A stretch of 64,000 nt of DNA from Patescibacteria group bacterium (GCA_040387855.1 JAZKCY010000001.1:632793-696792); one strand, 5' to 3'. Shown: positions 6,187-64,000, counted from the stretch's first letter. The notes: a model not told the origin generated them from the letters alone. A program made the numbers and translations.

Positions 6187-6263
6187 GTATCGAAGTATAC
6201 CATGACGAAAACACAGTCTCGTATGAGACTGTGTATATCGTTGACTTTGATTAAAGAAATATG

Positions 6264-6431
6264 TTACGCGTGAGCTTCTTTGGCCATGCACTTCACACAA
6301 ATCTTTTGTTCAGGTCGTGTCTTAATATATTTGTTTGCACAAGCAGAGCAAACCAAAATTTCAGAACGCGTAGGCTTGTGTACCCACTTTCCATCTCGCT
6401 GAAATGTTTTTGTTGGTTGTAGTTTAAGCAT
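6264..6431 (-). CDS. 55-aa zinc-ribbon protein (CxxC-x14-CxxC)
   Basis: Hand translation gives MLKLQPTKTFQRDGKWVHKPTRSEILVCSACANKYIKTRPEQKICVKCMAKEAHA. It is absent from the ORF track (too short) and sits between the helicase and the RR on the same strand. Confidence 0.5.
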   Translation of the reverse strand: MLKLQPTKTFQRDGKWVHKPTRSEILVCSACANKYIKTRPEQKICVKCMAKEAHA

Positions 6432-6453
6432 AAACGTTATTGTTAATTAATTA

Positions 6454-31965: not shown

Positions 31966-32739
31966 ATGACCAAAGCCACGGCTTCAGCGTCGATTCCCAC
32001 CACCACCACTCTCAACCTCCGTGACTTCGAGGTCCCCCACCCGACCAGCCGCGACAACTTCGTCGTCAGCGTCGGCATCGGGACCAAGAGCCTCGACGAC
32101 AACGGCTTCGTGACCGACAACATGCCGTTCATCGAGCAGGTCCAGCGGCGGGCACGTCGCCACACCTCCGAGGGAGTGGCGCACGCTATCGGAGACATGA
32201 CCATCAGCTACCTCGACCGCCGCATCCGTCAGGTCGTGATCGAGGTCAAGAACACTGCCAGCCGCTTCACCCTGAAGCAGCCGAAAGTGCTCGAGCTCGA
32301 CCCACAGCCCAGCCTGCCGCAAGGGTTCGACACGTTCCGGATCGATGGCCTCTCTGTGGAGGCAGAGCTGAGCGACAACCACGTGTGCGGTGGGTACGAC
32401 GGCCAGTTCCGCTGCGACCTGAGGTATACTGCCGCCGACGGGAAGAACCGCTCCACCGCGATCACCGACGTGATCCGACGCGCCTTCCAGAGCAAGACCT
32501 ACACGGCGAGCTGCGAGCAGCTCACCCAGGGCATCGTCTACCAGGCATGCCAGGTCTTGGGCAGCCAGGGGCTCCACGTCATCGGTCGGGTCTACAACCT
32601 GACCGGCTACGCCGAGACCCACTGGAACTCCAGGCTCGTGGTACCGGAGATGCCGCGAGAGTCAACCTGTGGCGAGGTGCGCGAGTCCAAGCCGTCCAGG
32701 TCCTCGAGCTCCAGCGAACGCAGCATGAGCTGGTGCTGA
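31966..32739 (+). CDS. hypothetical protein encoded in a high-GC island (foreign composition)
   Basis: I counted 40/60 G+C at 32041-32100, against 16/60 at 601-660. SD TAAGGGA before the ATG; a host-like terminator follows. The protein is not Lys/Ile/Asn-biased like the neighbours. No motif recognised. Confidence 0.6.
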   Translation: MTKATASASIPTTTTLNLRDFEVPHPTSRDNFVVSVGIGTKSLDDNGFVTDNMPFIEQVQRRARRHTSEGVAHAIGDMTISYLDRRIRQVVIEVKNTASRFTLKQPKVLELDPQPSLPQGFDTFRIDGLSVEAELSDNHVCGGYDGQFRCDLRYTAADGKNRSTAITDVIRRAFQSKTYTASCEQLTQGIVYQACQVLGSQGLHVIGRVYNLTGYAETHWNSRLVVPEMPRESTCGEVRESKPSRSSSSSERSMSWC

Positions 32740-34229: not shown

Positions 34230-34925
34230 CTACAGCACGATCACCACGATGGGCACCGTCTTCTGCCACCCGATGACCAGCTTCCACCCCTTGCGGAAGC
34301 ACACCTTCGACCACGGCCCGGCCGCTCGGAGCAAGCCGTTGACAGTCGGGAACTCGTGAGCGATCGACTGCATCAGCAGCTCGTGGAGGAAAGGCTCCTC
34401 CTCGACCAGCTGGTGCATCAGATCCATCTTGCGGGATCCCAGGTGACCACGGCTGTCCAACTGCTCGTTGAGGGTGTTGAGCCGGTTGCACACCCCTCGA
34501 TAGACGCGGTAGAGCCGGCGGAGGTTCGGCGACATGACGCCGACTTCCACTTCCATGCCCATCATCTCGCGCTTAGGCCCGATGTTGATGTCGGCACCGT
34601 GCATGCGCTCGGCGACATTCTGGACCTTGTGGATCTGCGAGAGGGTGAGTTTGATGCACGTCTCCAGCGTCGCGATCTGCTCGCTGACGACCAGCGCGGT
34701 GTCGACGGATACCTGCTCGAATGGATAGCCGACGAAGTAGTTGTCGTTGGGGATGATCGTAAGGTCGACCATCCGAAACAACAACAAGGTCCGCTGTTGC
34801 CACGTGAGATTCTCCCGAAGACGCAGCAGAAGCTGATCCATCGCCTGGGTCATCACCCGCTTCCTCGGCATGAACCAGTGGGGCCTCCGTCGAGATCGGG
34901 TCTGTCTTCGCGTTTGAGTCTGCAT
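34230..34925 (-). CDS. hypothetical protein with Arg-rich N-terminus, encoded in a high-GC island
   Basis: I counted 36/60 G+C at 34561-34620. GGAGG SD 8 nt before the ATG at 34925 (MQTQTRRQTRSRRRP…). The track ORF extends to 34961 with no SD. The antisense ORF 34356-34973 has a GC-shadow composition. Confidence 0.5.
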   Translation of the reverse strand: MQTQTRRQTRSRRRPHWFMPRKRVMTQAMDQLLLRLRENLTWQQRTLLLFRMVDLTIIPNDNYFVGYPFEQVSVDTALVVSEQIATLETCIKLTLSQIHKVQNVAERMHGADINIGPKREMMGMEVEVGVMSPNLRRLYRVYRGVCNRLNTLNEQLDSRGHLGSRKMDLMHQLVEEEPFLHELLMQSIAHEFPTVNGLLRAAGPWSKVCFRKGWKLVIGWQKTVPIVVIVL

Positions 34926-35056
34926 TGCGATTCCTCCGGTTGCAGGGTTAGATTGGAACATGAGCTACGTTAGCTCAGCGGTTGAGTACGATACCATATA
35001 TATCCAACATGTCAACATGGATATATTATTGTGTCAAATTGCGATAAAATACCAAC

Positions 35057-44808: not shown

Positions 44809-46602
44809 TTACCCTACCACTTCCGTGGGTTGGGTGTTGTACTGCTGCCACAACACTAAGAATTCAGGACACGTACGGATGAGCTGTGCCAACGTGCCGG
44901 TAGCGACCAATTGCCCCTCATGAAAGAAGTGAATCACATCAAACATGTGGAGTAGGTGCAGCCGATGAATTGACGAGATCACCGTCTTATCCAAGAACGC
45001 GTTGAAGATGTTGGTGTACACCTTCTTCTCTGTAGCCGTATCCAAGCTCGATGTGGGTTCATCGAGTAGCACGACCTCCTTGTCGTGACAGGCCAGGAGC
45101 CCGCGTGCAAGCGCCAGGCGCTGCTTTTGGCCACCTGAGAGATTGACTCCGCGCTCCTTGAGGGACGAATCTAGTCCTTTCGGCAACAAAGCGGCAACAT
45201 CGGTGAAGCACGCCATGTCGGTGTAACGACGGACCAAGTCCGAATCGTACTCCGCACCGAGGGTGATGTTTTCAATCACCGTCGTCCCAAAGATGTCGGG
45301 ATCCTGCGGCAAAAGTCCAATTGCTCGGCAAATGCCATCAAACCCGTCTTCGATTTCGTGATCATCCACAAAGAGTTTCAAGCTCTGCGGACGATGGAGA
45401 CCTCGTACGACTTTGAGCAATGTCGACTTGCCGCTTCCACTTGCTCCCACAAGTGCAACGCGCGACCCACGTGTGATGTCGAACGCTACATTTGCCAAGT
45501 GTAGTCCCGTACCATTATCTGCGTACGAGAAGTTGAGATCCCTCACTTCCATGCGTTGCCAATCCTTTCGCAACACATGGTTAGCAAGGTTATCTTCTTT
45601 GAAGTCGTCAGCCACTTCCTCGGCATTCGCGATGCGTGATGTTCCCACCACGACATCTTTGTACATGCCGGTGAAGCGAAAGAAAACTTCGCTCATTTCA
45701 TCCAAGTACTTGATGAGGATGTAGACCGTGCCCACGAGCACTGCCTTCGGTGTTTCCATATGCTGCCAAACGTACAGCCCCAAGACAAGCATTGTCATGG
45801 CGGCGGTACAGAAGGTAGTAAGGAACCACTTTATCTCGTTAAGCGTTGTGTTCCGCTTAAAGAGATCATACGGCTTGTCGACCCTGTGACAGATCGCCTC
45901 GAACACCAGTCGCTCAACGCGCAGAATGATCACGGTTGCAATGTTTGAGATTGTGTCAAAAACATTCTCCGAAATCTCGTTCTCTGCTTTGTTGAGTTTC
46001 CGATATTGAGGGATCATCACTCGATCGAACTTGATCGTGAAGAATATGGACAGACACATCATTCCGACGACGATTGGAATCGACATCGGAAAAAAGTATC
46101 CGAGCATAATGAAACTCCCCACGAGCTGTATGAAGGCATAGACGATCTGGAACGACATCGACGAAAACTGATAGAGTGCCGAAGCACCTTTTTCAATCTT
46201 GTCGATGGTGTCGCCAGAGTGATGCTCCACATGCCATTCCAATGGCAGGGTCATCGTGCCTTTGAGCAAGTACTTCCGGTAGTTCGCACGGGACTTAAAC
46301 GCATTCAGGGTTTCCCAAACGCGCGCAGGACCGTGAAAAGCCCAGAAGACCATCTTGGTCACAAACATCCACACCAACAACTTGATGAGTGTGGGCATGC
46401 TGTCGACGGTGATTCCCTCAGCCTGGATCTCATTCATGATCTTCGCCCCCAACAGAGGCAAGAAAAAGAGCATGATCGAGATCGCAATGATGAAGAAGCC
46501 CCAGTACAGGGCCACACTCTTGCGGTTGCCCGCTGAGTAGTGCCACGTCTTCCAGAACAGGTACACGAACGGATTTCCGTTCCTGTGAGGCTTCTTGAAC
46601 AT
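44809..46602 (-). CDS. fused TMD-NBD ABC exporter, high-GC (foreign composition)
   Basis: Six N-terminal TM helices. Walker A GASGSGKST, signature LSGGQKQRLALARGL, Walker B VVLLDEPTSSLD. I counted 40/60 G+C at 45061-45120. AAAGGA SD upstream of the ATG. Confidence 0.85.
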   Translation of the reverse strand: MFKKPHRNGNPFVYLFWKTWHYSAGNRKSVALYWGFFIIAISIMLFFLPLLGAKIMNEIQAEGITVDSMPTLIKLLVWMFVTKMVFWAFHGPARVWETLNAFKSRANYRKYLLKGTMTLPLEWHVEHHSGDTIDKIEKGASALYQFSSMSFQIVYAFIQLVGSFIMLGYFFPMSIPIVVGMMCLSIFFTIKFDRVMIPQYRKLNKAENEISENVFDTISNIATVIILRVERLVFEAICHRVDKPYDLFKRNTTLNEIKWFLTTFCTAAMTMLVLGLYVWQHMETPKAVLVGTVYILIKYLDEMSEVFFRFTGMYKDVVVGTSRIANAEEVADDFKEDNLANHVLRKDWQRMEVRDLNFSYADNGTGLHLANVAFDITRGSRVALVGASGSGKSTLLKVVRGLHRPQSLKLFVDDHEIEDGFDGICRAIGLLPQDPDIFGTTVIENITLGAEYDSDLVRRYTDMACFTDVAALLPKGLDSSLKERGVNLSGGQKQRLALARGLLACHDKEVVLLDEPTSSLDTATEKKVYTNIFNAFLDKTVISSIHRLHLLHMFDVIHFFHEGQLVATGTLAQLIRTCPEFLVLWQQYNTQPTEVVG

Positions 46603-53078: not shown

Positions 53079-53519
53079 TTACGAATTTCTAATTTCTAAA
53101 TATTCCTGTACACCCTTTAGCCATCCCCCTTTAAAATATTCTTCTGGCTTAAATGTTTTTATATCAGCCCAGAGCATTTCAACATGTCGTTCCGAAAGTT
53201 GTACGTCGCCACTTTTCCATGTGGCAGGATAACCAATGGCAAATATTCTTACTGTTGGATTTCCTTCAGTTGCTTCTACTCGTTCATGTCTTAGAAACAC
53301 TAAGGGTTTTTCTAATTCATATGCAAGATTACTGCCCACTTCCTGAGACATCTTTCTTGCAATAATGCTTTCGAAAGGAGCATCAAATTCATCTTTCTTA
53401 ATTCTTCCCCCAGGCAAATCCCAATCACCAAAATTATCTTTCATGACCAAAAACTTTCCATCCTTTTCTAGGAAAACCTTTACTGCTACAAAATATGTAT
53501 CTTTTTCTTGAATGCTCAT
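53079..53519 (-). CDS. NUDIX-like hydrolase (divergent Nudix box)
   Basis: DLPGGRIKKDEFDAPFESIIARKMSQEVG approximates GX5EX7REUXEEXGU. Confidence 0.55.
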   Translation of the reverse strand: MSIQEKDTYFVAVKVFLEKDGKFLVMKDNFGDWDLPGGRIKKDEFDAPFESIIARKMSQEVGSNLAYELEKPLVFLRHERVEATEGNPTVRIFAIGYPATWKSGDVQLSERHVEMLWADIKTFKPEEYFKGGWLKGVQEYLEIRNS

Positions 53520-53558
53520 ATATAGTATTAAGACTATTTTTAGTCTATTATAGCTTAC

Positions 53559-54020
53559 ATGATATACAATGTCCCTGGTATTGGCGAGATGGAATTAAAG
53601 ACGCTCATTCTTGATTTGAATGGGACTCTTACTGTAAAAGGAATAATTCCTGAAGGCGTTAAAGTACGGCTCACGACTCTCAAATCACAAGGATATCGAA
53701 TTCTATTTTTCACTGGAAATACACGTAACAATGCAGATGAGATTGCTACATCTCTTGGTATTGAATGGATTCTTGCCGAGAGCGGTGTAGCAAAACGTGA
53801 TGAAGCATTGAAAATAGATCCTAAAACTTGTGTTTCTATTGGCAATGGGCAGATCGATCTTGAACTTATGAAAGTTGTTAAACTCCGCATAGTTACCCTC
53901 CAATCCGAAGGAGTGCATGTGCAGACTCTTTTAAACTCCGACATTGTTATTCCTTCCATCACTGATGCACTTGATCTTCTCATTGATCCAGCAACATTAA
54001 TCGCGACAATGAGAAAGTAA
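53559..54020 (+). CDS. HAD-superfamily hydrolase-like protein
   Basis: LILDLNGTLT (DxDxT-like) and a later GNGQID. Confidence 0.5.
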   Translation: MIYNVPGIGEMELKTLILDLNGTLTVKGIIPEGVKVRLTTLKSQGYRILFFTGNTRNNADEIATSLGIEWILAESGVAKRDEALKIDPKTCVSIGNGQIDLELMKVVKLRIVTLQSEGVHVQTLLNSDIVIPSITDALDLLIDPATLIATMRK

Positions 54021-54027
54021 TTTAAAC

Positions 54028-54062
54028 AAAAACCTCGCCATAACTATGCCGAGGTTTTTGTT
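54028..54062. terminator. bidirectional intrinsic terminator
   Basis: AAAACCTCG…CGAGGTTTT stem with a 12-nt loop, followed by TGTTT. Lies between convergent genes. Confidence 0.6.
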
Positions 54063-54081
54063 TGTATCTAAAGTAAATAAA

Positions 54082-54426
54082 TTATTTACTTACTGTTGAT
54101 GTAGCGGTTGTTGTTGCAACTGCTGAAGTAGATGTTGCCATCATGCTTGTACTTGTTGCAGTCATCATAGTTGATGTTGCTGCTTGCCCTGAGCCTGTCG
54201 AAAGGGTGCTTGTCGCTACATTTGGAAGTGTTGTTCCTGCATTTAATAATACAACTCCACTGTTTGCATGAATATCTACAGGAAGACGTAGAGCTTCTGC
54301 GGCGGTATTTGCAGTTACGGTTGCGAAGTTTCCTGAGGTATTGATATAACCGTAAGTTGCTGCAAATGAATATGCAGGAAGTGCAAACACTGCTGCCACT
54401 ACTATTGCGATCATTAATTTCTTCAT
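54082..54426 (-). CDS. secreted Thr/Ala/Ser-rich protein
   Basis: Signal peptide MKKLMIAIVVAAVFALPAYSFA, followed by a TST/ATS-rich low-complexity tail. Confidence 0.5.
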   Translation of the reverse strand: MKKLMIAIVVAAVFALPAYSFAATYGYINTSGNFATVTANTAAEALRLPVDIHANSGVVLLNAGTTLPNVATSTLSTGSGQAATSTMMTATSTSMMATSTSAVATTTATSTVSK

Positions 54427-54495
54427 GTGTATTCTAATTATGTGTAATGCTTTACTCTACTATACTAGCACTATGACGAACTACAAAATTGTTAC

Positions 54496-55152
54496 TTACA
54501 AATTACGTACCTCTACCAATTCTTTATCCTTCAACTGAAATTTTTTGATCTGTCGTAAAAGTTTTTCTGCACTTTTCCAATCACCAGAACTATAAAAAGA
54601 ACTTGAAGTGATATATACAAATCCTTTTTCAATTACAACTTTTTCTAAAACTGTAGCATTACCTCCAGACCATCCAGAAATAGTATCTGGAGTTCTAAAA
54701 TTCTCAACTGATTCCCCTGTTTTGTCTTGATTGTTGAGTACAAGTCGCAAACCATAAGCACAATCACCCTTAGTACATGAGCTCACCCACACAAGAGCAT
54801 CAGCATACTTATCATTATTTAAATCACCTTTATAGATAGCATCGATTTTATTGAATCCATTATCAACAGCTACTCCATATATAGTATTCCCCTGTGCATC
54901 TTGTTGAGTAAGATACTGATACTTTGCTCTGTTTTGAGAAATGAGCCCAATGTTTAAAGCATCTACAATCTGTTGATCTGTGAGATCGGTCATGTCAGTA
55001 ATTTCTATCGAACTAAGAACTCCTTCTGTATCGGAGGTTGAAGAATTTACAGAATTTATTTTTGTAGAAAGATACACACTCGCAGATATTGCAACAATAG
55101 TTATTACGATAATACTTACTACTCGTATAAAACCTTTTTCATACTTTCTCAT
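54496..55152 (-). CDS. N-terminally anchored hypothetical protein
   Basis: TM helix at aa 10-30 (VVSIIVITIVAISASVYL) then a ~180-aa domain with CTKGDC. Confidence 0.45.
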   Translation of the reverse strand: MRKYEKGFIRVVSIIVITIVAISASVYLSTKINSVNSSTSDTEGVLSSIEITDMTDLTDQQIVDALNIGLISQNRAKYQYLTQQDAQGNTIYGVAVDNGFNKIDAIYKGDLNNDKYADALVWVSSCTKGDCAYGLRLVLNNQDKTGESVENFRTPDTISGWSGGNATVLEKVVIEKGFVYITSSSFYSSGDWKSAEKLLRQIKKFQLKDKELVEVRNL

Positions 55153-55257
55153 GATTCTTTTAGTATCTCATTAAAAATAAAACACGGCTATACGTATGTG
55201 CACATAGTATGGGAATAAAAATCCCCGGGTCTTGGTAGGCTCGGAGGGTACATATTG

Positions 55258-55986
55258 CTACACAGTCACGAGATCACTCCCCACAAGCTCGGTAGCTTCG
55301 TCGGCTAGCACACTCACGGCGCTTGCCGGTGCGTACCGAATGAGGATGAGCTCGTATGCGCAGCCGGATGTCACGAAGGCATCGTCCACGGGCATCACGG
55401 CTTCGACGTCTTGGTACCTTTCGTGATTGCGAGGAAGCGGCGGCTTCTGGGCTTTGCGAGCCCACTCGTCGATTGTCTCGCGGAACACGGCGATGACGAT
55501 GGTGCCCACAGCAGTCGTCTCACGAAACATCCTTGCAACGTGTGACTGCTGATTGCCCTTGGCGACAAACGGTATGAGCGTGCGTTTTTTGCGCCAGCCC
55601 TTCACCGTCCCGCCGTTTTCTTCGCCAACGTTGAAGATGTAGTTGGCTGTGTCGTCCCAGCAGACCGCTGAGTCAACATCTTCATACACGGGCACGATCT
55701 CGCTGTCGCTCACCGACAAGCCGTCGACGCCCATCGAGCACTGGTGGCTCGCAACAGGATCGATGACGCCGATCACAATCTCAAACTGCTCGCCCTGCTC
55801 GAGAGGGATGTAGCGGAAGTACCTATCCGCATCTCGGGGCCCGATTCCCACCACATCAGCGAGAGCCTTTGGTTGGAAAAATCTCACCTTGCGTACAGGA
55901 TCGCCACGCGCAGTGACAACGTTGATTCCCACGGTGATGAGATCACCGCGAAATACATCGGTGCCATTGGGGTTGCTTGTGTTCAC
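55258..55986 (-). CDS. hypothetical protein encoded in a high-GC island (GTG start)
   Basis: I counted 37/60 G+C at 55441-55500. GTG start is preceded by an AGGAG SD 7 nt upstream. No motif recognised. Confidence 0.5.
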   Translation of the reverse strand: MNTSNPNGTDVFRGDLITVGINVVTARGDPVRKVRFFQPKALADVVGIGPRDADRYFRYIPLEQGEQFEIVIGVIDPVASHQCSMGVDGLSVSDSEIVPVYEDVDSAVCWDDTANYIFNVGEENGGTVKGWRKKRTLIPFVAKGNQQSHVARMFRETTAVGTIVIAVFRETIDEWARKAQKPPLPRNHERYQDVEAVMPVDDAFVTSGCAYELILIRYAPASAVSVLADEATELVGSDLVTV

Positions 55987-56090
55987 GAAGCACTCCTGCC
56001 CGGTAGGGCTGTAAGAGATATAAGAGGCAACAATGGATGAACAAACTCACTACCATAAGTATGACAAATATGGTTGAGCGGCACAATCAT

Positions 56091-56537
56091 TTACTCACAT
56101 CCCCATCCATCATTGTCTCGGTCAAGATCAAATTCATCATAGCCGAGTACCTGTACTTTCCCAGTATAATTTGGTCCATTGCCTGATCCGCTTCTACAAT
56201 CATAATCCCCGGCGCCAATTTTCAAACATCCAGAATAATTTGTATTACATACAGGTTCTGATTTCGGTTCAGGTGGAGGAACTGGTTTTGGAGTCGGTGC
56301 AGGAGTTGGAGTAGGTACTGGTGTAGATTCAGGTTTTGCTACGGATTGAGCAACAGGTTTAACTTCTGGTGGTATTGCTGGCTCCTTTTTTACTTCAGGT
56401 GTTTTTTCTGCAGCCTGATTCTGAAAAGGCATCACTACAGCTGCTGGCTGAGGTGATTGGACTGCTGAGGTATCTGACATTCCAGCCATTACAACAAACG
56501 CACCAATGATTCCTGCTCCAATAAGTAGTTTTTTCAT
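56091..56537 (-). CDS. secreted Pro-rich protein with C-terminal Excalibur calcium-binding domain
   Basis: Signal peptide, PTPTPAPTPKPVPPP linker, then CNTNYSGC…DYDC…DRDNDGWGCE (the Excalibur DxDxDGxxCE loop). Confidence 0.7.
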   Translation of the reverse strand: MKKLLIGAGIIGAFVVMAGMSDTSAVQSPQPAAVVMPFQNQAAEKTPEVKKEPAIPPEVKPVAQSVAKPESTPVPTPTPAPTPKPVPPPEPKSEPVCNTNYSGCLKIGAGDYDCRSGSGNGPNYTGKVQVLGYDEFDLDRDNDGWGCE

Positions 56538-56546
56538 ACAAAGACT

Positions 56547-58109
56547 TTATCTCGAATTTAAATTTCTTTTAAAATATTCTCTAAGATCAGGATCAACTAT
56601 ATATACATATGTACCTAGAATACCTCGAGTTAATAATGTCTTATAAATATTAATCACATATCTTTTTAACTCTTCAGGATCATTTACCCCTCTATGTCCA
56701 TTTGTATCGTGATATTTATTTTTATTAACAGATATTTCTTTTCTTACTGAGTCATAATATATTTCTGGACCAATAATCACACCTGTGTAATTTAAATCAT
56801 ACCCTTGAATTGTATGAATACATCCCACCTCATTAATTGAGTTCTTTGAATTAACCCAATCATGAATTTGAGAATTCCAAAATAGTTTAGTGTTCTCAAT
56901 TACAATATCAGGAATACCTTTATTAGTTTTTGAAATCCACCTCCAGGCATACCCTGCAACTAATCTACTTATCTGATGCTCTTTATCTTTCTCTTTAATA
57001 TCCTCAACCATCTTATCTAGATCATCATATATCTTGAAATCATAATCTGAAAAATTAGCTTTTACATCTACTTTTGCTTCTAATAATTTATCAATGAAGT
57101 CTATGTACTCTTGTCCCCCTTTTACTCTCATCTGTGTCTTCAATTCAAAGCTGATTGGATTTGTTTTAAGCACTTTTGTCATTGAGACATCTGAAGGACG
57201 TACTGATTGCCGCTCATCATAAAAAAGCACAACATGTTTTGCTGATTGGACTATCCAATCGAGTTCTGTGCCTTCATTGTCCAATCCCAACTTTCTATTT
57301 GTGGCGTCAAAGCTTCCATAATTTGGAATGTTTTTTCTCTGACGTAACCGGTGGGTTTCATCTACAACTACTATGTCATATTGCTTTTGAGTTATTTCAT
57401 TAGGGCCTATCACCATTGATGAATCGAGACCAGGAATACTTCTAAACACTTTTTTGAGTGTTTGTCTTAATGAGGTCATTGCAATCACTATAGCAACATT
57501 TGTATTTCCAAGTTCAACAAGTCTTTTTATAAGAAAAGTAGCTAGAATTGTTTTACCTGTACCTGGTCCGCCATGAATAATATAAGTTTGCTTTTTATCT
57601 TCCTTGAAATACTCAAGGAGCTTCATCGCTATTAAATACTGATCATCGGTAAGTGTTTTATATGGTGAGTATTTAAAAATATCGCTATTTCTAATTTGAA
57701 GAAGATCGTTTTTTGCTAGCTTTTTTTCCTGAAGTGTCTTCCACAAAAGTTCAAATTTGGTTTTATATCTTTCTCTATCAAAATAATCATGATTCTGAAG
57801 ACCTGCATTTCCATTTTGTAGAATGTACTGTCCATCAGCAACCATATATTCAATGAGAGAAGATTCAGTATCTAGAGTTGCAGACTTGTTAAACTCATCA
57901 TCAGATATGATATGAATTTTATTTAATTGTTTTCTACTTTGATTATCTAAATGTTGTTTAGTACGACTATATACGCGAACGGTCTCACCGACATAGAGTT
58001 CTTTTCCATTTTCTATAAGATACACTACAGGCCAGCCACTTCCATACTTGGAGGTGCGTATTGTTTCAACTCCAGCTTGATCAAAAGGAAATGTCTTTAT
58101 GTCAGACAT
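56547..58109 (-). CDS. GIY-YIG nuclease domain fused to DUF2075 / Schlafen-like P-loop ATPase
   Basis: The N-terminus VVYLIENGKELYVGETVRVYSRTKQH is a GIY-YIG core. The central region has GGPGTGKT (Walker A) and VVVDETHRL (DExH-like Walker B), in the DUF2075 arrangement. Confidence 0.8.
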   Translation of the reverse strand: MSDIKTFPFDQAGVETIRTSKYGSGWPVVYLIENGKELYVGETVRVYSRTKQHLDNQSRKQLNKIHIISDDEFNKSATLDTESSLIEYMVADGQYILQNGNAGLQNHDYFDRERYKTKFELLWKTLQEKKLAKNDLLQIRNSDIFKYSPYKTLTDDQYLIAMKLLEYFKEDKKQTYIIHGGPGTGKTILATFLIKRLVELGNTNVAIVIAMTSLRQTLKKVFRSIPGLDSSMVIGPNEITQKQYDIVVVDETHRLRQRKNIPNYGSFDATNRKLGLDNEGTELDWIVQSAKHVVLFYDERQSVRPSDVSMTKVLKTNPISFELKTQMRVKGGQEYIDFIDKLLEAKVDVKANFSDYDFKIYDDLDKMVEDIKEKDKEHQISRLVAGYAWRWISKTNKGIPDIVIENTKLFWNSQIHDWVNSKNSINEVGCIHTIQGYDLNYTGVIIGPEIYYDSVRKEISVNKNKYHDTNGHRGVNDPEELKRYVINIYKTLLTRGILGTYVYIVDPDLREYFKRNLNSR

Positions 58110-58112
58110 ATA

Positions 58113-58460
58113 TTAAAGCTTAGTATACTTATCGGATTTTCCTTTTGCTTTTTCTACAGAATACTTTGCTTCATTCTGCTTCATTTTTTCCTCAAACAGT
58201 TTTTTAATATCTAAACCTAGATCATGTGACATTAGAAGCACCCAATACAATACATCAGCAAGCTCTTCACCGACTTTATCTTTATTCTCCACAAGATAAT
58301 TTTCAATATCACCTTCTTTTTTCCATTGGAAATGTTCTAGTACTTCTGTTGCTTCCAGAACAAGTGAGAGCGCCATGTCTTTTGCATTATGAAATTGCTT
58401 CCAGTCTCTTTTGTCTCTAAAGTCAACTATTCTTTTTGTTAAATCCTTAATTTCAGACAT
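58113..58460 (-). CDS. MazG-like all-alpha NTP pyrophosphohydrolase
   Basis: ALSLVLEATEVLEHFQW and ELADVLYWVLLMSHDLGLD match the small MazG/NTP-PPase family. Its stop lies 3 nt before the downstream start. Confidence 0.75.
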   Translation of the reverse strand: MSEIKDLTKRIVDFRDKRDWKQFHNAKDMALSLVLEATEVLEHFQWKKEGDIENYLVENKDKVGEELADVLYWVLLMSHDLGLDIKKLFEEKMKQNEAKYSVEKAKGKSDKYTKL

Positions 58461-58549
58461 ATTTATATAAACTTATCTATAAGCCTATACCTTCTAAAGA
58501 AAAAATCAATTATTTCTAAAGTCTTCGCGAAGTCACAAGGTACCTGTCC

Positions 58550-59233
58550 CTATTTTCCAACTTCAAATACATTTGGCCATTGTCTAAGTTCGCTTGTTGT
58601 TTCACCATAAAAAATATTAAATTTTTCAATAATTTCTCGTACATGAACATGTAGGAATTGCGGCTGATTTTTAAGACTGTTTCTAGGTAATGTTAAAGCA
58701 AATACTTGGGGCTCGCTAAGACTTGTGACATTCATATCACTATTAACAAAAGAATGTTTGTGAGCATTTGCTATATCATTTAATATCTCCAAAAATGAAA
58801 TGTGCCCGGAATATTTTGATTTTATATTCCTCGCTAATTGAGAGGGCTCATTAATTAGTGCTCCTATGCAATCAACCTTCAGGATGTCAGGAAATTCTTC
58901 ATTAGCAATATAAAAGTCTTTTATATAAAGCAGTGATATGAGTTCATCTGTTGTTCTCTTTAGCCAAAAAGTAATTTCATCACTAAGAGAGTGATCGTTT
59001 ATCGGATTATATGATATAAAATCACTTGATGTTAATTCAATCAGATTTCTCTCATGCCATTCATTCAAAACTGTTATTTTTATATTAATAAGATCTAGCC
59101 TCTGTAAAATTTTAGAGACTTTTAATGTTAAATTTCCATAGGGTGTATTTGGAGGAAGATAAAATAAATGACTATTACTTATGGTTGGCTGATCATATGG
59201 ACGTTTGCCGTTATTTATAAAAGGTATTGGCAT
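58550..59233 (-). CDS. hypothetical protein
   Basis: 227 aa, no TM, no motif. Same strand and tightly spaced within the block. Confidence 0.45.
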   Translation of the reverse strand: MPIPFINNGKRPYDQPTISNSHLFYLPPNTPYGNLTLKVSKILQRLDLINIKITVLNEWHERNLIELTSSDFISYNPINDHSLSDEITFWLKRTTDELISLLYIKDFYIANEEFPDILKVDCIGALINEPSQLARNIKSKYSGHISFLEILNDIANAHKHSFVNSDMNVTSLSEPQVFALTLPRNSLKNQPQFLHVHVREIIEKFNIFYGETTSELRQWPNVFEVGK

Positions 59234-59246
59234 TTTAAGTTATATT

Positions 59247-59573
59247 TTATGATATTGGAAAGTCCAACTGTTCCTCAGGTATACCTATTGATTTACCGTA
59301 CTCCACAGCATCACTCCATGTAGACTTATCTGAATACTTTATCCAGAATATTTTGTTCTTATAGATAACGCAGACATCATCTTTTCCCTCTTCCCATGCG
59401 TGAACATACCATGGACCTTCAACAAGACTTTTTGAGATTAGTTCTATCTGTTCTTTTTCAATAAGAACATCATGTAATATCCATGAACCGGCTCTTCGAG
59501 TATTCAGAATGTTTACGGAGTCTAAAAAAGATTTATCAGTCAAACTGCTTTCTATGATTGAGGATTTAAACAT
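59247..59573 (-). CDS. hypothetical protein
   Basis: 108 aa, Trp-rich (GPWYVHAWEEG…IFWIKY…STWSDAVEYG). No family assigned. Confidence 0.45.
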   Translation of the reverse strand: MFKSSIIESSLTDKSFLDSVNILNTRRAGSWILHDVLIEKEQIELISKSLVEGPWYVHAWEEGKDDVCVIYKNKIFWIKYSDKSTWSDAVEYGKSIGIPEEQLDFPIS

Positions 59574-59586
59574 ATTTGGATTTTAT

Positions 59587-60648
59587 CTAACCTAAAAACT
59601 CAACTTCAAAAACATGATGACTATAAGGGTAACCTGAGTCATTTTTTATGAATCCTGTATTTACAACACTAATCTTTGCTTTCATGTAACTCAATGCTTT
59701 TCTTACAATATACAGACCAATACCTGATCCATTTTTACTTATTTCGCTTTTAATACCATTTTTTATATTTCTTCCTTGTCTATTTTCTAGAAATATAATT
59801 TCTTCTTCATCTTTTTCAATTGAGACACTGTCCATTGAAATTGATATTTTCTTTTGTTTCAATGCTAAATCTCCAGAAATATCTATTGTAGTATCATTTA
59901 ACACATACTTACATGCATTATCGAGGATCTGCCAAATCGCAGCATTAAACAAACTATGAACAATATTTATTTTATTTCGATCGCTGTTTTGAAGATTTAT
60001 TCTAATATCAACATTCTTTTTTTTAAGTTCATCAATAAAAGGATTGGTTAAACGATACAATGCTCTTTCGATATTTGTAGGCAATAATGTGCCAGTATTA
60101 TCAGCATATCCTCCAATGATTCTAAGTGTTTCAATTTGTGCATCTAAATCAATTGCTCTATGTGACATCTGGCATACATCATCTGCAGCTGCACTTGTAT
60201 TTTCCTCGATTCTTCGTTTAACTTCTCTAGTAAATTCAGCATAGGGTCTAGCTCTTGCCTTATCAGAAATTAAACGTACAAAATTATTTTTGAATCTATT
60301 TTGAAACTTTATTAAATTATGTGAAAATCTCCTAATAATTGCGTCAAATGATTGTCTTTGACCAACTTCAATTTCCTTAAATTTTGGAATTAAACTTAAA
60401 TAAATACTACAAGCTCTTTGGATTGCTTTACTGCCTTGAAATAAGTCAGCATTCTCATCAACTATTAGCTGAATTGAACCATTTGCATTTTCTCTAAAAG
60501 CATTTTTTAAACCTTTCTGAGAAAAATTTTCTCGATTGTTTTTACTAAAAATATCAGGCAAAAGATCTAACTGACCGTGTCTTGCCACAATATTTCCTTT
60601 AAAATTTCGTAACTCATAAAAAATAATTCCTTCACTATTTTGATTCAT
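59587..60648 (-). CDS. histidine-kinase-like ATPase with novel N-terminal region (atypical HK)
   Basis: The C-terminal has an N-box-like HSLFNAAIWQILDNACKY and a G-box GSGIGLYIVRKAL. A possible HisKA_2-like H-box is SHRAIDLDAQ. The N-terminal 200 aa is unassigned; no TM. Confidence 0.6.
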   Translation of the reverse strand: MNQNSEGIIFYELRNFKGNIVARHGQLDLLPDIFSKNNRENFSQKGLKNAFRENANGSIQLIVDENADLFQGSKAIQRACSIYLSLIPKFKEIEVGQRQSFDAIIRRFSHNLIKFQNRFKNNFVRLISDKARARPYAEFTREVKRRIEENTSAAADDVCQMSHRAIDLDAQIETLRIIGGYADNTGTLLPTNIERALYRLTNPFIDELKKKNVDIRINLQNSDRNKINIVHSLFNAAIWQILDNACKYVLNDTTIDISGDLALKQKKISISMDSVSIEKDEEEIIFLENRQGRNIKNGIKSEISKNGSGIGLYIVRKALSYMKAKISVVNTGFIKNDSGYPYSHHVFEVEFLG

Positions 60649-61141
60649 ATTTTTTTATAGCTGCTACCTCAATTTGGTCAATATAAACATACGGATCTGA
60701 ATGTTTGTCAATCCATGCATTCGCGAATGAATGAAATTCATGTCCTGGAATATAACCAGCATGCCCAGAATAAAATATGAGAAATTTTTCTGGATATCTG
60801 CTCTTTATTTTTTTTAGCAAACCGATTCCCTCTTCTGATGGGGTTAGGATTTTACCCACTCCGATGTAATCCATAAATATGATGTCAGCATTTTTTATAT
60901 CTTCTGAATCAAAATTAGTCACATCTTTTATTTGCTGAACATTCCATCCTGCACCTCTAATAATATTCAATCTCGTAGAAAAATCTTCATCATCAACAAA
61001 TAATACCTTTGTTGAACGTTTGATTTCTTCAATTGATGGTATCTTTTTTTTAGTTAAAACTTTTTTTAACCAATTTCCAGTTTTGTCCATTCCTACACCA
61101 ATAAATACTCCCGCCAGCTTTGTAGCTGCAATTTCCCACAT
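60635..61141 (-). CDS. receiver-like (REC-fold) protein with ~45-aa N-terminal extension
   Basis: KVLFVDDED (acidic pair), IIFMDY (candidate phospho-Asp), LIFYSGHA, WIDK. It overlaps the HK-like gene by 14 nt. Confidence 0.5.
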   Translation of the reverse strand: MWEIAATKLAGVFIGVGMDKTGNWLKKVLTKKKIPSIEEIKRSTKVLFVDDEDFSTRLNIIRGAGWNVQQIKDVTNFDSEDIKNADIIFMDYIGVGKILTPSEEGIGLLKKIKSRYPEKFLIFYSGHAGYIPGHEFHSFANAWIDKHSDPYVYIDQIEVAAIKKYESK

Positions 61142-61171
61142 GGTGATTTATATTATTCTATTCTTACTATG

Positions 61172-61242
61172 CTGCGGGACTAGGACTCGAACCTAGATAC
61201 TCAGGACCAAAACCTGATGTCCTACCATTAGACGATCCCGCA
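61172..61242 (-). tRNA. tRNA-Gln: tRNA-Gln (anticodon UUG)
   Basis: Hand-folded cloverleaf. Acceptor TGCGGGA/TCCCGCA with U1:A72 and G73 discriminator; D-stem GTCT/GGAC; anticodon stem TCAGG/CCTGA with loop TTTTGGT; T-stem CTAGG/CCTAG with loop TTCGAGT. No encoded CCA. Confidence 0.85.
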
Positions 61243-61377
61243 ATCTTGTCCCGCAAAGTCCTGCACCATAGGTGTAGGACGAAGTGGGATGTGTTCCAAA
61301 GATACTACAGTTTATGCCTTATTTCAATAGACAAACTGTGCTATTGTAATATTACGAAGAATCTAGCGTATATATCA

Positions 61378-61941
61378 ATGGAATTCCTATATACCAACAA
61401 AAAGATCAACAGCCTTGCTGCAGCCTTCAAAGATGGTGACCAACGAGCTGCTGAGAAGCTTTTCAACTATTTCTACCCCGCTATCTTTAGATACATCCGC
61501 TCCCGCCTTACCGACAAGGAAGCAACAGCAGATGTAGCTCAAGATGTCTTTCTGAAACTGGCAAAATCGATTGTTCTCTATGACGCAGCTAAAGGAAATT
61601 TTAGTACATGGTTTTGGCAAATTGCCCGCAACACCTTTACCGATCATTTGAGATCATTGCAGCGAGATCATTCACAGAGTGAGACTCAGCTTGATATTGC
61701 TCTCGATAGTATGGAAGCAAGTTTGGACAATACCGAAAGTGTGAGAGAACGAATGACCGAAGTAAAAGAAATCATTCAAGAGTTTTCGGAAGAAGATCAA
61801 GAACTATTTAGACTTCGGTATATCGCCGAATTATCGTTTGAAGAAATTGCTGAGCTCACTGATAGGACCGAGAATGCACTGAGAGTTTCACTCCATCGAA
61901 TCCGCGAAAAAATCAAAAAAGAATATGATAAAAAAGATTAA
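61378..61941 (+). CDS. ECF-type sigma-70 family RNA polymerase sigma factor
   Basis: Region 2 is LFNYFYPAIFRYIRSRL…DVAQDVFLKL. Region 4 is ELFRLRYIAELSFEEIAELTDRTENALRVSLHR. Start taken at MEFLYTN. Confidence 0.8.
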   Translation: MEFLYTNKKINSLAAAFKDGDQRAAEKLFNYFYPAIFRYIRSRLTDKEATADVAQDVFLKLAKSIVLYDAAKGNFSTWFWQIARNTFTDHLRSLQRDHSQSETQLDIALDSMEASLDNTESVRERMTEVKEIIQEFSEEDQELFRLRYIAELSFEEIAELTDRTENALRVSLHRIREKIKKEYDKKD

Positions 61942-62803
61942 CAACTACATACAGGATCGAAAGATCACCCGCCGCGCAAAGCGAGATTTAAACCCTTCGA
62001 AAGAGGCGATGAATCATGCGCGATTGGCGTTTATGGGCGAAGTTACCGAGCGCTTCCCTTTTGCTATGAAGTCTACACCTAAAGCGACACATCACTATGC
62101 CCGCTTTGCTATTGCTGGAGTTGTTGCAATTCTTCTCATAAACAGTGGAGCTGTGATGTATGCTGATACTACTAATGTAGATGCAGAACATCCGCTCTAC
62201 TCATTTAAGCTTGTTGCTGAGAAAGTGCAGGTTCTTGCTTCATCTGAAGAAAAACGTGCAGAGCTTGAATTGAAATTTGCTGAGCGACGAATGGTTGAAA
62301 TTGAAGTTGAAGAACAATATACCGAAATGCCACAAGAGGCACGAGAGAAAAAGAAGATAATGCTTCAGGCACAGCTTGAAAAGCATATGGTAAATGCCGA
62401 GCGATTTATTGCTATGAAGCAAGCAAAGCGAGGTAATGTTGGAATTGCAGCTACTTCTACTATTTCAGTTACTGCTACATCTACCCATTCGACTTCCTCG
62501 ACTGCGCTCGCAACAAGCACCTCAGGGCAAGCTGCAACTTCTACTTTAAAGTCAGAGATTAAAACTCTTATTAAAGAAATAAAAGAAACTTCTAAAGAAC
62601 AAAAAGAAGATATTAAAGAAAAGCGAGAAGCAGCTAAAGATGCTTTGAAAGCAAGTACGTCTACATCAATTACTGCTGAAGTAAAAACATCTGAGTGTAA
62701 AAAGTTTGAAGATGTGGAAAAGCAAATTAATAAGCTTTCTACTCGAAAAAGCCTTCAGATCAATACAAAACTCGACAATATTATCAAATACTGTCAAGAC
62801 TAA
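61925..62803 (+). CDS. anti-sigma-factor-like single-pass membrane protein with coiled-coil/low-complexity C-terminal region
   Basis: Overlaps the sigma gene by 17 nt. Short cytoplasmic N-terminus, then a TM (FAIAGVVAILLINSGAVMYA), then a long EK-rich and ST-rich region. Confidence 0.5.
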   Translation: MIKKINNYIQDRKITRRAKRDLNPSKEAMNHARLAFMGEVTERFPFAMKSTPKATHHYARFAIAGVVAILLINSGAVMYADTTNVDAEHPLYSFKLVAEKVQVLASSEEKRAELELKFAERRMVEIEVEEQYTEMPQEAREKKKIMLQAQLEKHMVNAERFIAMKQAKRGNVGIAATSTISVTATSTHSTSSTALATSTSGQAATSTLKSEIKTLIKEIKETSKEQKEDIKEKREAAKDALKASTSTSITAEVKTSECKKFEDVEKQINKLSTRKSLQINTKLDNIIKYCQD

Positions 62804-62888
62804 TACTCCCTGAGTCTGCTACGTATATATAAGCAGAGATCACATGGTCTCTTCACATCAGTCACGATTATCTTTAACTTATATACGT

Positions 62889-63581
62889 ATGAAAAATTCA
62901 GCTAAAATTGGTTCAGTACTCGCGCTTACCGTTGTTCTTCTTACAGGAAGTTCAGCATATGCACACACAGGAACTACAACTCCAAAAACAGGGACTGCGA
63001 AGTTCTTCTCAAAGTTACATATCAACGGTCTTGGTAAAACAAACATCGTTGGATCGGTAACTGCCGTATCTGCAACTGGATTTACTGTAGCTTCACAAGG
63101 AGGCTCATGGACTATTAAGACTGATTCTAATACTCACTTCACTGTAAAGAATGGAGCAAACCAAGTGAAAGTTGGTGATACCGTGATGGTATATGGAACT
63201 GTTTCAACAACAGAGACTATGACTATCGTTGCTTCAAAAATTGAAAACAAGACACTCAAGACAACGATGAAACTCGAAAAGAAAGCTGCCCACGAAAACA
63301 AAAAAGAAATTAAGCAGAGTCTTAAAGAATTGAAAAAGCATATGTTATCACTATTTAGCTTCGGTACGGTGCAAAGTGTCGGAACTAATTCCCTCACCCT
63401 CAAGTCTCAGAATGGTGCAACATATGATATAAAAACTTCATCAACAACAGAGACATATAAAAAAGATTGGACTGCAACTTCAACCTCAGCAATCAAAGCA
63501 AATCATCAGATTCACGTGTACGGAACAAAGACAGGAACGACAACAATCGATGCGTCTATCATTCACGACTTATCTCTCTAA
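62889..63581 (+). CDS. secreted protein with two DUF5666-like beta-rich repeats
   Basis: Signal peptide MKNSAKIGSVLALTVVLLTGSSAYA. Two ~65-aa repeats (GSVTAVSATGFTVAS…VYGTVS and GTVQSVGTNSLTLKS…VYGTKT). Confidence 0.55.
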   Translation: MKNSAKIGSVLALTVVLLTGSSAYAHTGTTTPKTGTAKFFSKLHINGLGKTNIVGSVTAVSATGFTVASQGGSWTIKTDSNTHFTVKNGANQVKVGDTVMVYGTVSTTETMTIVASKIENKTLKTTMKLEKKAAHENKKEIKQSLKELKKHMLSLFSFGTVQSVGTNSLTLKSQNGATYDIKTSSTTETYKKDWTATSTSAIKANHQIHVYGTKTGTTTIDASIIHDLSL

Positions 63582-63654: not shown

Positions 63655-64000
63655 TTATGCCGTGCTTAGTGAAATGAGAGCAAGTTCAAATGGCAATTCA
63701 CTTATTGGAGAGAACCGAGCAAGATCCTGAGCTTTCAAAAATTCTAATACTGCTTTTGAGGTAATGCCTGTATCTTTCTTTGCAGCGAGGACTTTCATCC
63801 AACTAAAATCTTCTCCTGAAAATTCATCTTCTATCATTTTGTCCATGTCTGGACTGTACTTGAGCAATAAAATAGATCGGAGTTTGTGGAGCACAAGCTT
63901 TGAGAAAATAGCCATGTCTACATTTTGATCCACTGCAGATCTCAAAGCTTTCAATCCAGATGAAGCATCTTTTGTATCTATAGCTGCTACCACATCATTA
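63655..64000 (-). CDS. 3' portion of a gene continuing beyond the right edge (possibly DNA polymerase III clamp-loader subunit C-terminal domain)
   Basis: Open to the window edge. The helical C-terminal …SSGLKALRSAVDQNVDMAIFSKLVLHKLRSILLLK… resembles delta/tau C-domains only weakly. Confidence 0.3.
   Translation of the reverse strand, partial: NDVVAAIDTKDASSGLKALRSAVDQNVDMAIFSKLVLHKLRSILLLKYSPDMDKMIEDEFSGEDFSWMKVLAAKKDTGITSKAVLEFLKAQDLARFSPISELPFELALISLSTA

Follow-up and report, generated by a model that had tools for sequence, protein, structure and literature searches.

The phage-defence candidates (PDCs) of PADLOC number 145 and are predictions only, made through 'guilt by embedding' in BREX, DISARM and type I RM systems (Payne et al. 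bioRxiv 10.1101/2024.01.29.577857). Detocs consists of the histidine kinase DtcA, the buffer receiver DtcB and the receiver-effector DtcC. Nhi of Staphylococcus and lactococcal AbiO are validated defence proteins in which a nuclease and a DUF2075-type SF1 helicase share a single polypeptide; the Nhi nuclease is of the PD-(D/E)XK type, and its SF1B/Dda-like helicase overlaps with DUF2075. In CMoRE, a lone GIY-YIG protein carries out type IV restriction of 5hmC DNA (PMC12923530). DCTPP1 and RS21-C6 are house-cleaning enzymes.

We compared these systems with a block of six genes (g1 to g6) beside a tRNA-Gln in the small, compact genome of a Patescibacteria group bacterium. The window, that is, the whole stretch of DNA analysed, spans 64,000 nt (GCA_040387855.1 JAZKCY010000001.1:632793-696792). 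The block has the following features:

61171-61242, minus strand: tRNA-Gln(ttg), anticodon UUG (ARAGORN; Rfam RF00005, 61.2 bits)
60635-61141, minus strand: g1, predicted REC protein, 168 aa (ORF call; PADLOC PDC-M43A; PDB receivers)
59587-60648, minus strand: g2, predicted histidine-kinase-like ATPase, 353 aa (ORF call; HATPase_c; PADLOC PDC-M43B)
59247-59573, minus strand: g3, predicted small alpha/beta domain protein, 108 aa (ORF call)
58550-59233, minus strand: g4, predicted rare helical protein, 227 aa (ORF call)
58461-58549, minus strand: g4-g5 spacer, 89 nt (ORF spacing)
58113-58460, minus strand: g5, predicted MazG-like NTP pyrophosphohydrolase, 115 aa (ORF call; PF12643)
56547-58109, minus strand: g6, predicted GIY-YIG nuclease and SF1 helicase, 520 aa (ORF call; PF09848, weak GIY-YIG)

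The block is probably a mosaic accessory island, in which four independently inherited modules (g1-g2, g3, g4 and g5-g6) lie head to tail behind tRNA-Gln, and not one system. The functions of all modules are predictions from sequence. The initial annotation had proposed the six genes as a candidate defence or stress module. As a single system, this would mean that the REC/kinase pair controls the MazG-like and GIY-YIG/DUF2075 proteins as effectors, with g3 and g4 as novel adaptors. The layout it described beside tRNA-Gln is real: the six genes are co-directional and tightly spaced, 29 nt separate tRNA-Gln from g1, and its spacings between g1 and g6 were reproduced (-14, 13, 13, 89 and 3 nt). 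The arrangement is identical in an independent assembly (L001, a contig of Logan SRR26324620). This spacing, with its single 89-nt gap, would suit one system, as would domains that fit known defence-system themes. However, only 9 nt separate g6 from the next gene, which encodes an unrelated secreted protein, and the minus strand carries an unbroken run of 10 protein genes (54082-61141) as well as the tRNA. Co-orientation and close packing are therefore not specific to the six-gene block. Furthermore, the modules occur apart elsewhere, with no other module at any of 10 g1-g2 loci, 80 g5-g6 loci or 5 g4 loci. Considering also that g1 carries no effector domain, that the block holds no REC-effector protein and that g5-g6 is autonomous from Patescibacteria to Bacillus, we regard a single six-gene system as very improbable.

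Some observations on the block point away from a mosaic. No minus-strand terminator-like site was found from the tRNA to g6, so co-transcription of the block is possible, as a six-gene system would lead one to expect. Local cross-talk in a single genome is compatible with zero co-occurrence elsewhere, and the samples are small for g4 (n=5 loci) and g1-g2 (n=10 loci). Beyond the block, the Excalibur neighbour that had been reported does have a match (56091-56537), but a weak one (E 0.003, 12 residues).

The REC/kinase pair had been presented as undescribed, but it matches a PADLOC candidate nearly full length. Residues 29-163 of g1 align with positions 65-200 of the 203 in PDC-M43A (PDLC04646, 2.9e-32), and residues 40-351 of g2 with positions 39-341 of the 347 in PDC-M43B (PDLC04647, 4.2e-31). 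The two genes are adjacent and co-oriented, A before B, with a 14-nt overlap. By these matches, g1-g2 is a predicted member of the candidate family PDC-M43, i.e. already catalogued. In contrast to the contexts on which PDCs are based, the pair in the window is not embedded in a BREX, DISARM or type I RM system and stands directly after tRNA-Gln.

The reading of g1 as a REC-like protein with an N-terminal extension holds. The protein combines a hydrophobic/basic N-terminal extension of ~40 aa with a receiver domain. Its family profile matches the response-regulator receivers 3cu5 (E 2e-4), 6swb and CheY in the PDB, and its receiver residues D50, D51, D91, S125 and K146 are invariant among homologues; Pfam Response_reg gave no match on g1 at E<=0.1. 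Neither a DNA-binding nor an enzymatic output domain was present on g1 in the Pfam scan and the alignment. We predict that g1 is a stand-alone REC protein with an acidic pocket, a phospho-acceptor Asp, and the Ser and Lys. The kinase-like assignment of g2 was likewise borne out by a match to HATPase_c (Pfam, 1.4e-7). Its profile matches the catalytic domains of SrrB, VicK, PhoR and BceS in the PDB, and its N and G boxes (N244, G309-I-G311) are invariant. The sole invariant histidine, H110, lies in the motif RRFxHNLxKFQ, 134 residues ahead of the N box, and no HisKA-type Pfam match was found on g2. The protein is predicted to be cytoplasmic, with a ~100-aa N-domain of no assigned type, a DHp-like region containing H110, and a GHKL catalytic domain. 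In this first module, g2 would sense through its N-domain, autophosphorylate on H110 and hand the phosphate on to D91 of g1, a receiver lacking an output domain. That would leave the conserved N-terminal extension of g1 as the sole available output.

A kinase-to-receiver phosphorelay, a stand-alone receiver and a defence-type neighbourhood would all be shared with Detocs, whose logic had been invoked for the block. Unlike Detocs, the block lacks a further receiver as well as any fusion of a receiver to an effector (e.g. PNP), and the putative effectors g5 and g6 never accompany g1-g2 elsewhere, which argues against Detocs-type logic. No Detocs model was among the PADLOC matches at E<=0.1, from a library that may not include such models.

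A g1 homologue lies directly upstream of every g2 homologue examined, and the direct succession of g1 and g2 recurs in all 10 distinct other loci (from Minisyncoccia, Nomurabacteria, Auribacterota, a Bdellovibrionaceae-labelled MAG and metagenomes). No homologues of g3, g4, g5 or g6 were found within ~8 kb of these 10 pairs, which consist of two genes only and are sporadically distributed. As in PDC-M43, homologous pairs occur in defence-island or mobile-element contexts. At locus L097, the surroundings include two ThsB-TIR genes, a caspase, ArdC, an intact large serine recombinase and TrwB, and at L098 a cNMP-TIR with Mrr/NA-iREase. One further pair, with dprA on one side and topA on the other, is a bare insertion. 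This last position would fit a housekeeping explanation, in which g1-g2 is an ordinary two-component system, g5-g6 serves nucleotide-pool sanitising and DNA repair within the DNA-damage response of Patescibacteria, and the block is ordinary genome content beside a tRNA. Against it stand the sporadic distribution of g1-g2, its TIR, Mrr and recombinase surroundings and the lack of a DNA-binding output.

The tRNA-Gln belongs to the host and recurs as a landmark ahead of g1-g2 in other genomes, in agreement with the association first noted in the window. It lies upstream of g1-g2, in the same orientation, in loci L006, L007, L009 and L012; from locus to locus, the tRNAs share only 73-81% sequence identity. 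The synteny of dnaX and tRNA-Gln is common to the window, L006 and L007. The initial annotation had proposed looking for relatives with an intact tRNA-Gln and no block. L006 and L007 fit this in part: they keep dnaX and tRNA-Gln and are missing g3-g6, but g1-g2 is present in both, as in the window. In L007, a serine recombinase of 492 aa and the tRNA-Gln 3' end overlap, with g1-g2 lying 4.5 kb downstream, and remnants of recombinases lie beyond g2 in L006 and L009. With L097, these loci resemble tRNA-adjacent islands mobilised by large serine recombinases, and in such relatives g1-g2 is cargo near the recombinase, downstream of tRNA-Gln.

The window differs from such islands. Searched by tblastn with the recombinases of L007 and L097, it gave no match, and Pfam scans of the examined ORFs in 53079-61941 revealed neither an integrase nor a recombinase; for ORF 53559-54020, the precomputed annotation of L001 has only a faint Hydrolase_3 match. 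The best direct repeats of the tRNA 3' end in the window (13/20 and 18/30) are at chance level, and L006, L007, L009 and L012 contain no such repeat. Serine recombinases need just a short core. Since the window has neither a recombinase remnant nor an att-like repeat, we infer its island history from the relatives. A classical tRNA-integrated island is not supported in the window. Island borders are undefinable, and the GC content is just slightly lower (29-35% vs 37.5%). The broader notion of an accessory, conflict-flavoured neighbourhood is supported.

Both g3 and g4 are unknowns, as first described, with no match in Pfam, PADLOC, NCBIfam or PHROGs searches. Elsewhere, the g3 domain is promiscuous and occurs in fusions with many different, unrelated enzymes. 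The second module, g3, is predicted to be independent, a free-standing copy of a widespread and uncharacterised family of small accessory domains. The third module would be g4, a rare stand-alone helical protein from conflict-type neighbourhoods, whose homologues occur alone in five unrelated contexts with long flanking gaps. It is possibly HEPN-like. Its invariant residues are N152, N156, K159, H160 and S161, in the motif LNxIANAxKHSF. If g4 were a HEPN-like RNase toxin and g3 its neutraliser, the two could form a toxin-antitoxin-like pair wedged between the other modules, which we consider improbable. In contrast to HEPN toxins and Abi-type HEPN proteins, g4 lacks the Rx4-6H motif, with no conserved Arg ahead of H160, and has no Pfam HEPN match, no Foldseek support and no antitoxin partner. 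A g3 homologue is found at none of the five other g4 loci, and the promiscuity of g3 also argues against a dedicated antitoxin.

The MazG-like and DUF2075 assignments of the last two genes were confirmed. The g5 protein matches MazG-like PF12643 (1.5e-17; 64.1 bits, cut-off 27) and, in the PDB, the archaeal pyrophosphatase 4qgp (8.6e-16) and dCTP pyrophosphatase 1 (3.8e-14), with both of which the whole of g5 aligns. It is a predicted all-alpha MazG-like NTP pyrophosphohydrolase of the DCTPP1/RS21-C6 kind. For g6, the match to SLFN-g3_helicase/DUF2075 (PF09848) is strong (3.6e-68). The GIY-YIG domain that had been assigned to it falls below the Pfam cut-off (E 0.0015, 19.2 vs 22.6 bits), yet 26 homologues show no variation at its motif residues Y30, Y39-V-G41, R49, H53, E82 and N99, nor in the Walker A motif GPGTGKT and the DE box. 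We therefore retain g6 as a predicted fusion of a GIY-YIG nuclease with an SF1 helicase of the DUF2075/Schlafen-group-3 type.

The claimed coupling of these genes also stood. Of 80 g6 loci, 74 have a g5 homologue, which in 71 of them is the co-oriented gene immediately upstream, and homologues of g1-g4 were found at none of the 80. The flanks are otherwise unrelated (the next commonest flanking family occurs in just 7/80 loci); RhuM, HTH-Fic, zeta-toxin and HNH genes are among them, as well as tandem DUF2075 paralogues. The pair is also found on the B. thuringiensis plasmid pIS56-233. We regard g5-g6 as an autonomous and widely conserved operon, which is very common in Patescibacteria and extends to Bacillus. 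A LexA-like S24 domain is fused to the C-terminus of g6 in 38 of the 80 loci; the g6 of the window is the short form without it.

The g6 protein has more than 7,700 homologues, and its best 120 database matches share 56-77% full-length identity. An alignment of 26 sequences has 57% mean column identity and ~110 invariant columns, a conservation atypical of fast-evolving defence genes and a point that weighs against the mosaic reading. Housekeeping would be consistent with this abundance and conservation, with the link of the S24 fusion to RecA and DNA damage, with house-cleaning dCTP pyrophosphatases as the nearest solved relatives of g5 and with the rarity of g6 in phages (6 records). However, conservation around g5-g6 is almost absent and the flanks contain conflict-type genes, paralogues occur in tandem, the pair is carried on Bacillus megaplasmids, no conserved LexA-type operator was found upstream of g5, and the helicase core of g6 is nearest to Nhi and AbiO. 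We consider housekeeping unlikely for the block. In its translational coupling to a nuclease-helicase in 71/74 loci, g5 differs from DCTPP1/RS21-C6.

Within the favoured mosaic, g6 would most likely translocate along DNA and cut it in the manner of Nhi and AbiO, and g5 would hydrolyse a canonical or modified dNTP beside it. The similarity of g6 to the PADLOC models of Nhi (2.8e-14, residues 145-377 only) and AbiO (1.7e-13, helicase region only) is partial and confined to the helicase core, and like Nhi, g6 is also related to Dda (T4 Dda, 3.9e-4). It differs in its nuclease type, in its obligate MazG-like partner gene and in the S24 domain of half its family, which may confer control through RecA-ssDNA-stimulated self-cleavage. 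CMoRE resembles g6 by analogy alone, as an anti-phage GIY-YIG protein whose modified-cytosine theme would parallel the dCTP-pyrophosphatase-like g5; it has neither a helicase nor a MazG partner. Tentatively, and at less than even chances, g5-g6 could be an uncatalogued two-gene defence, a nuclease-helicase triggered by RecA/ssDNA and possibly directed against modified-cytosine DNA or dNTPs, with PDC-M43 separately being cargo of serine-recombinase islands that target tRNA-Gln.

The g4-g5 spacer contains a weak sigma-70-like match (58538-58509), and promoter-like matches in the region show no excess over shuffles. As the sole sizeable gap of the block, this spacer is the likely location of a promoter of g5-g6's own.

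Six minus-strand ORFs, g1 to g6, were found exactly where the initial annotation had placed them when it proposed a single defence or stress module at tRNA-Gln:

61171-61242, minus strand: tRNA-Gln(UUG), same strand as g1 to g6
60635-61141, minus strand: g1, REC receiver
59587-60648, minus strand: g2, HATPase_c (HK-like ATPase)
59247-59573, minus strand: g3, no database match
58550-59233, minus strand: g4, no database match
58113-58460, minus strand: g5, MazG-like (1.5e-17)
56547-58109, minus strand: g6, DUF2075/SLFN-g3 helicase (3.6e-68), with GIY-YIG below the Pfam threshold

Pfam searches upheld the domain calls in g2 (HATPase_c), g5 (MazG-like) and g6 (DUF2075/SLFN-g3 helicase). The g1 start codon lies 29 nt from the tRNA-Gln 3' end, and the spacings from g1 to g6 are, in order, -14, 13, 13, 89 and 3 nt. 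Gene order is identical in Logan contig L001, an independent public assembly; the source is a Patescibacteria MAG. Promoter and terminator scans of the block region gave results no better than those for shuffles.

The reading of these six genes as one system was not borne out. The next gene downstream of g6, encoding a weakly Excalibur-like secreted protein, follows after a gap of only 9 nt, and ten consecutive protein genes (54082-61141) all lie on one strand. Close co-directional packing is therefore a trait of the genome rather than of g1 to g6. Elsewhere, homologs of g3, g4, g5 or g6 were found within ~8 kb of g1-g2 in none of 10 loci, and g1, g2, g3 and g4 were absent from all 80 of the best g6 loci. 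The six genes make up a mosaic accessory island of four separately inherited modules (g1 with g2, g3, g4, and g5 with g6) and do not amount to one system. Among them are a member of PDC-M43, a catalogued defence candidate, one abundant uncatalogued operon of defence-type domains, and two orphan genes. In compact Patescibacteria genomes, systems are to be defined by comparative co-occurrence and not by shared strand and tight spacing, which corrects a tempting over-reading.

The REC/HK pair is already catalogued in PADLOC-DB, where g1 matches PDC-M43A (2.9e-32) and g2 matches PDC-M43B (4.2e-31), both nearly full length. The PDC label covers 145 candidate phage-defence systems, proposed because their relatives are embedded in loci for BREX, DISARM or type I RM, and their authors call them untested. 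In the literature searched we found no specific description of PDC-M43 and no mention of the name. A member of this candidate defence family can now be placed in Patescibacteria.

No Pfam family matched g1. It is nevertheless a genuine receiver: its family profile reaches response-regulator receivers in the PDB, and D50, D51, D91, S125 and K146 are invariant in the family. The alignment of g2 with its homologs (n = 53, 45-68% identity) contains a single invariant histidine, H110 (RRFxHNLxKFQ), an N box at N244 and a G box at G309-I-G311, and the family profile matches histidine-kinase catalytic domains of known structure. The fold of g2 residues 1 to ~100 was not recognised. This N-terminal domain would sense a signal, upon which H110 would be autophosphorylated and the phosphate passed to D91 of g1. 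A conserved hydrophobic/basic N-terminal segment is the sole candidate for the g1 output. Such signalling had been likened to Detocs; since Detocs has a receiver-effector protein and the block lacks one, the likeness does not hold.

Across 10 distinct loci, drawn from other genomes and from metagenomes, a g1 homolog always lay directly 5' of g2, usually overlapping it. The small ORFs that follow g2 elsewhere were compared with g3 and rejected as its homologs. Neighbourhoods of the pair vary and are frequently conflict- or mobility-flavoured. Its neighbours at locus L097 are a caspase, ArdC and a pair of ThsB-type TIR genes, together with a large serine recombinase and a TrwB-like gene. At L098 they are a TIR protein that binds cNMP and a restriction enzyme of the Mrr/NA-iREase type, and at L015 g1-g2 alone is inserted between dprA and topA. 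No copy of the pair turned up among IMG/VR viral contigs, and searches for g2 and g3 on plasmids returned nothing useful. Small stand-alone GIY-YIG ORFs, 81-141 aa long, are found repeatedly just upstream of g1 or beside tRNA-Gln in several g1-g2 loci (L012 5714-6416; L101 7157-7402 and 2322-2582; L103 85-369).

We found tRNA-Gln upstream of and co-oriented with g1-g2 in five of the 10 loci that have enough upstream sequence, the window counted. The distance is 29 nt in the window, 73 nt in the Minisyncoccia locus L006, ~208 nt in L009, 1.8 kb in L012 and 4.5 kb in the Nomurabacteria locus L007. At a sixth locus, L101, tRNA-Gln lies 5.2 kb from the pair on the opposite strand. The idea that tRNA-Gln travels as part of the cassette was rejected, since the tRNAs are just 73-81% identical between loci and appear to be host-specific genes rather than cargo.

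Whether the block is an island inserted at tRNA-Gln, as had been proposed, depends on the relatives. A gene for a large serine recombinase of 492 aa overlaps the tRNA-Gln 3' end at L007, and a series of small ORFs leads from there to g1-g2. L097 carries an intact recombinase immediately 3' of g2, and recombinase remnants lie downstream of g2 in L006 and L009. These loci make an island origin at the window's tRNA-Gln plausible, but it cannot be demonstrated in the window, which contains no recombinase remnant. Looking for an att site in the form of a directly repeated tRNA 3' end yielded nothing beyond chance level, either in the window or at four related loci, which is what the action of a short-core serine recombinase would lead one to expect. 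The association of the PDC-M43 pair with tRNA-Gln and large serine recombinases provides a handle for finding further cargo.

Several smaller features occur around this junction. Between tRNA-Gln and g1, the distant loci L006 (7435-7475, ACGAGTCAGAACGGTATCGTGCATGACCGAATAGCCTA) and L009 (673-712, a close variant) share a conserved element of ~40 nt that the 29-nt spacer of the window lacks; candidate roles are those of a processing signal, a regulatory RNA or an att remnant. The same two loci encode a 232-aa HTH protein (L006 6679-7377 and L009 2-589, ~54% identical), not present in the window, whose gene ends at or overlaps the tRNA-Gln start just upstream of g1-g2. L009, a contig from a MAG labelled Bdellovibrionaceae, has a masked run of N between tRNA-Gln and g1 (713-839). 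Its taxonomic label may be unreliable, because the contig's gene content resembles that of L006. At L097, the final 37 codons of the large serine recombinase gene are duplicated (9280-9390, 57% identity); the duplicate is placed between g2 and that gene and may be an attachment-site trace.

The proposed pairing of MazG with GIY-YIG/DUF2075 was confirmed, its membership of a six-gene unit was not. More than 7,700 g6 homologs were scored, the best 120 of which share 56-77% identity over the full length, and a metagenome scan yielded 559 relatives. A g5 homolog was present in 74 of the 80 best g6 loci and stood directly upstream on the same strand in 71, with a spacing of -3 to +20 nt after allowing for over-long ORF calls. 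Just two of the 80 had adequate upstream sequence and no g5. The flanks of the pair differ from locus to locus, the next commonest family occurring in 7/80; recurrent neighbours include RhuM, HTH-Fic, NUDIX and TspO. Tandem DUF2075 paralogues occur at some ten loci. The pair extends to the Bacillus cereus group, with a g6 homolog (~34% identity) on 70 Bacillus plasmid records. On pIS56-233, a "nucleotide pyrophosphohydrolase" directly precedes a "DUF2075 domain-containing protein", with HNH and zeta-toxin genes near. The MazG-like and GIY-YIG/DUF2075 pair is thus an autonomous and very common operon. Upstream of g5 in 68 loci we found AT-rich sequence only, with no conserved operator or LexA box.

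The Pfam match of the g6 GIY-YIG domain is below threshold, yet its catalytic residues are invariant in 26 homologs. In about half of the g6 family (66 of the 120 top database matches, 38 of 80 loci) the protein ends in a LexA/UmuD-type S24 domain that has the Ser-nucleophile motif (SGDSM), with a Cys-Gly site just before the domain in the six long forms aligned. The window's g6 is a short form without S24. Short and long forms are interspersed among the nearest relatives (75-77% identity), which implies that S24 was gained or lost repeatedly.

Partial PADLOC matches link the g6 helicase core to Nhi and AbiO, the GIY-YIG region to PDC-S14 and the C-terminal part to PDC-S41, and Bacillus and long-form homologs are likewise matched only partially. 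Because the family gives partial matches only, the g5-g6 operon is uncatalogued in PADLOC. With or without S24, it did not turn up in PADLOC-DB v2 or in the literature open to searching, where we also found no specific description linking DUF2075 with MazG or with S24/LexA. DUF2075 has been described in fusions to GIY-YIG and other nucleases, with a possible abortive-infection role, and the helicase of Nhi, a validated nuclease-helicase, overlaps DUF2075. Nhi and AbiO are the closest to the operon in logic. In its N-terminal part, the helicase core of g6 resembles T4 Dda. Among solved structures, g5 is nearest to a pyrophosphatase from an archaeon (8.6e-16) and to mammalian dCTP pyrophosphatase 1 (3.8e-14).

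An ATP-driven SF1 helicase in g6 would carry the GIY-YIG nuclease along DNA, and g5, as a DCTPP1-like enzyme, would remove a canonical or modified dNTP. A role of the operon in defence is possible but short of probable, and one in repair or sanitation is somewhat less likely. In long forms, S24 self-cleavage stimulated by RecA-ssDNA would be the likely switch. The fusions yield a concrete, testable prediction, activation by RecA-ssDNA. As a conserved, abundant unit, the operon is a lead worth following.

Neither g3 nor g4 matched anything in Pfam, PADLOC, NCBIfam or PHROGs, or in sequence-profile searches of the PDB. The g3 family is large (340 cluster representatives at E<=1e-3), and its domain occurs alone or at the C-terminus of larger fusion proteins. 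The N-terminal partners are GNAT, ASCH, NYN, DUF2806, GrpB, CutA1, TehB, NUDIX, SnoaL, glyoxalase, methyltransferase, DUF559 and, once, a MazG-like domain. Rather than the novel component of the block it had been taken for, g3 is a generic accessory domain. Its predicted model is very confident (pLDDT 97) and has no convincing neighbour among solved structures; a Foldseek search of the PDB with the g4 model found nothing. We rejected g4 as an N-terminal partner of g3 fusions, to which it has no similarity. Its only viral match (L109, IMG/VR UViG 3300050333_000121, 6001-6636) belongs to the accessory end of a Mu-like prophage, where it comes after the genes for baseplate, tail fibre and a D12-class Dam methyltransferase.

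Synteny of dnaX and tRNA-Gln is common to the window, L006 and L007. In the latter two, dnaX adjoins or is near tRNA-Gln, while in the window an ECF-sigma operon is inserted. In this region (61246-63581, plus strand, and 63655-63993, minus strand), an ECF sigma factor, a 292-aa protein, possibly an anti-sigma, and a DUF5666 protein separate tRNA-Gln from the C-terminus of dnaX. The TTG start listed for the sigma factor (61246) nearly abuts tRNA-Gln and is probably too far upstream.

The window, with a GC content of 37.5%, also contains three gene-sized high-GC islets with sharp boundaries:

31966-32739, plus strand: islet 1, GC 64%, GC3 88%
34230-34961, minus strand: islet 2, GC 60%, GC3 83%
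55258-55986, minus strand: islet 3, GC 58%, GC3 69%

Each contains a single ORF of 242-257 aa, and the three ORFs are mutually unrelated. None has a Pfam match, and islet 3 also has none in PADLOC, NCBIfam or PHROG. Islet 3 recurs in an independent assembly, and an ABC exporter (44809-46602) is partly GC-rich as well.
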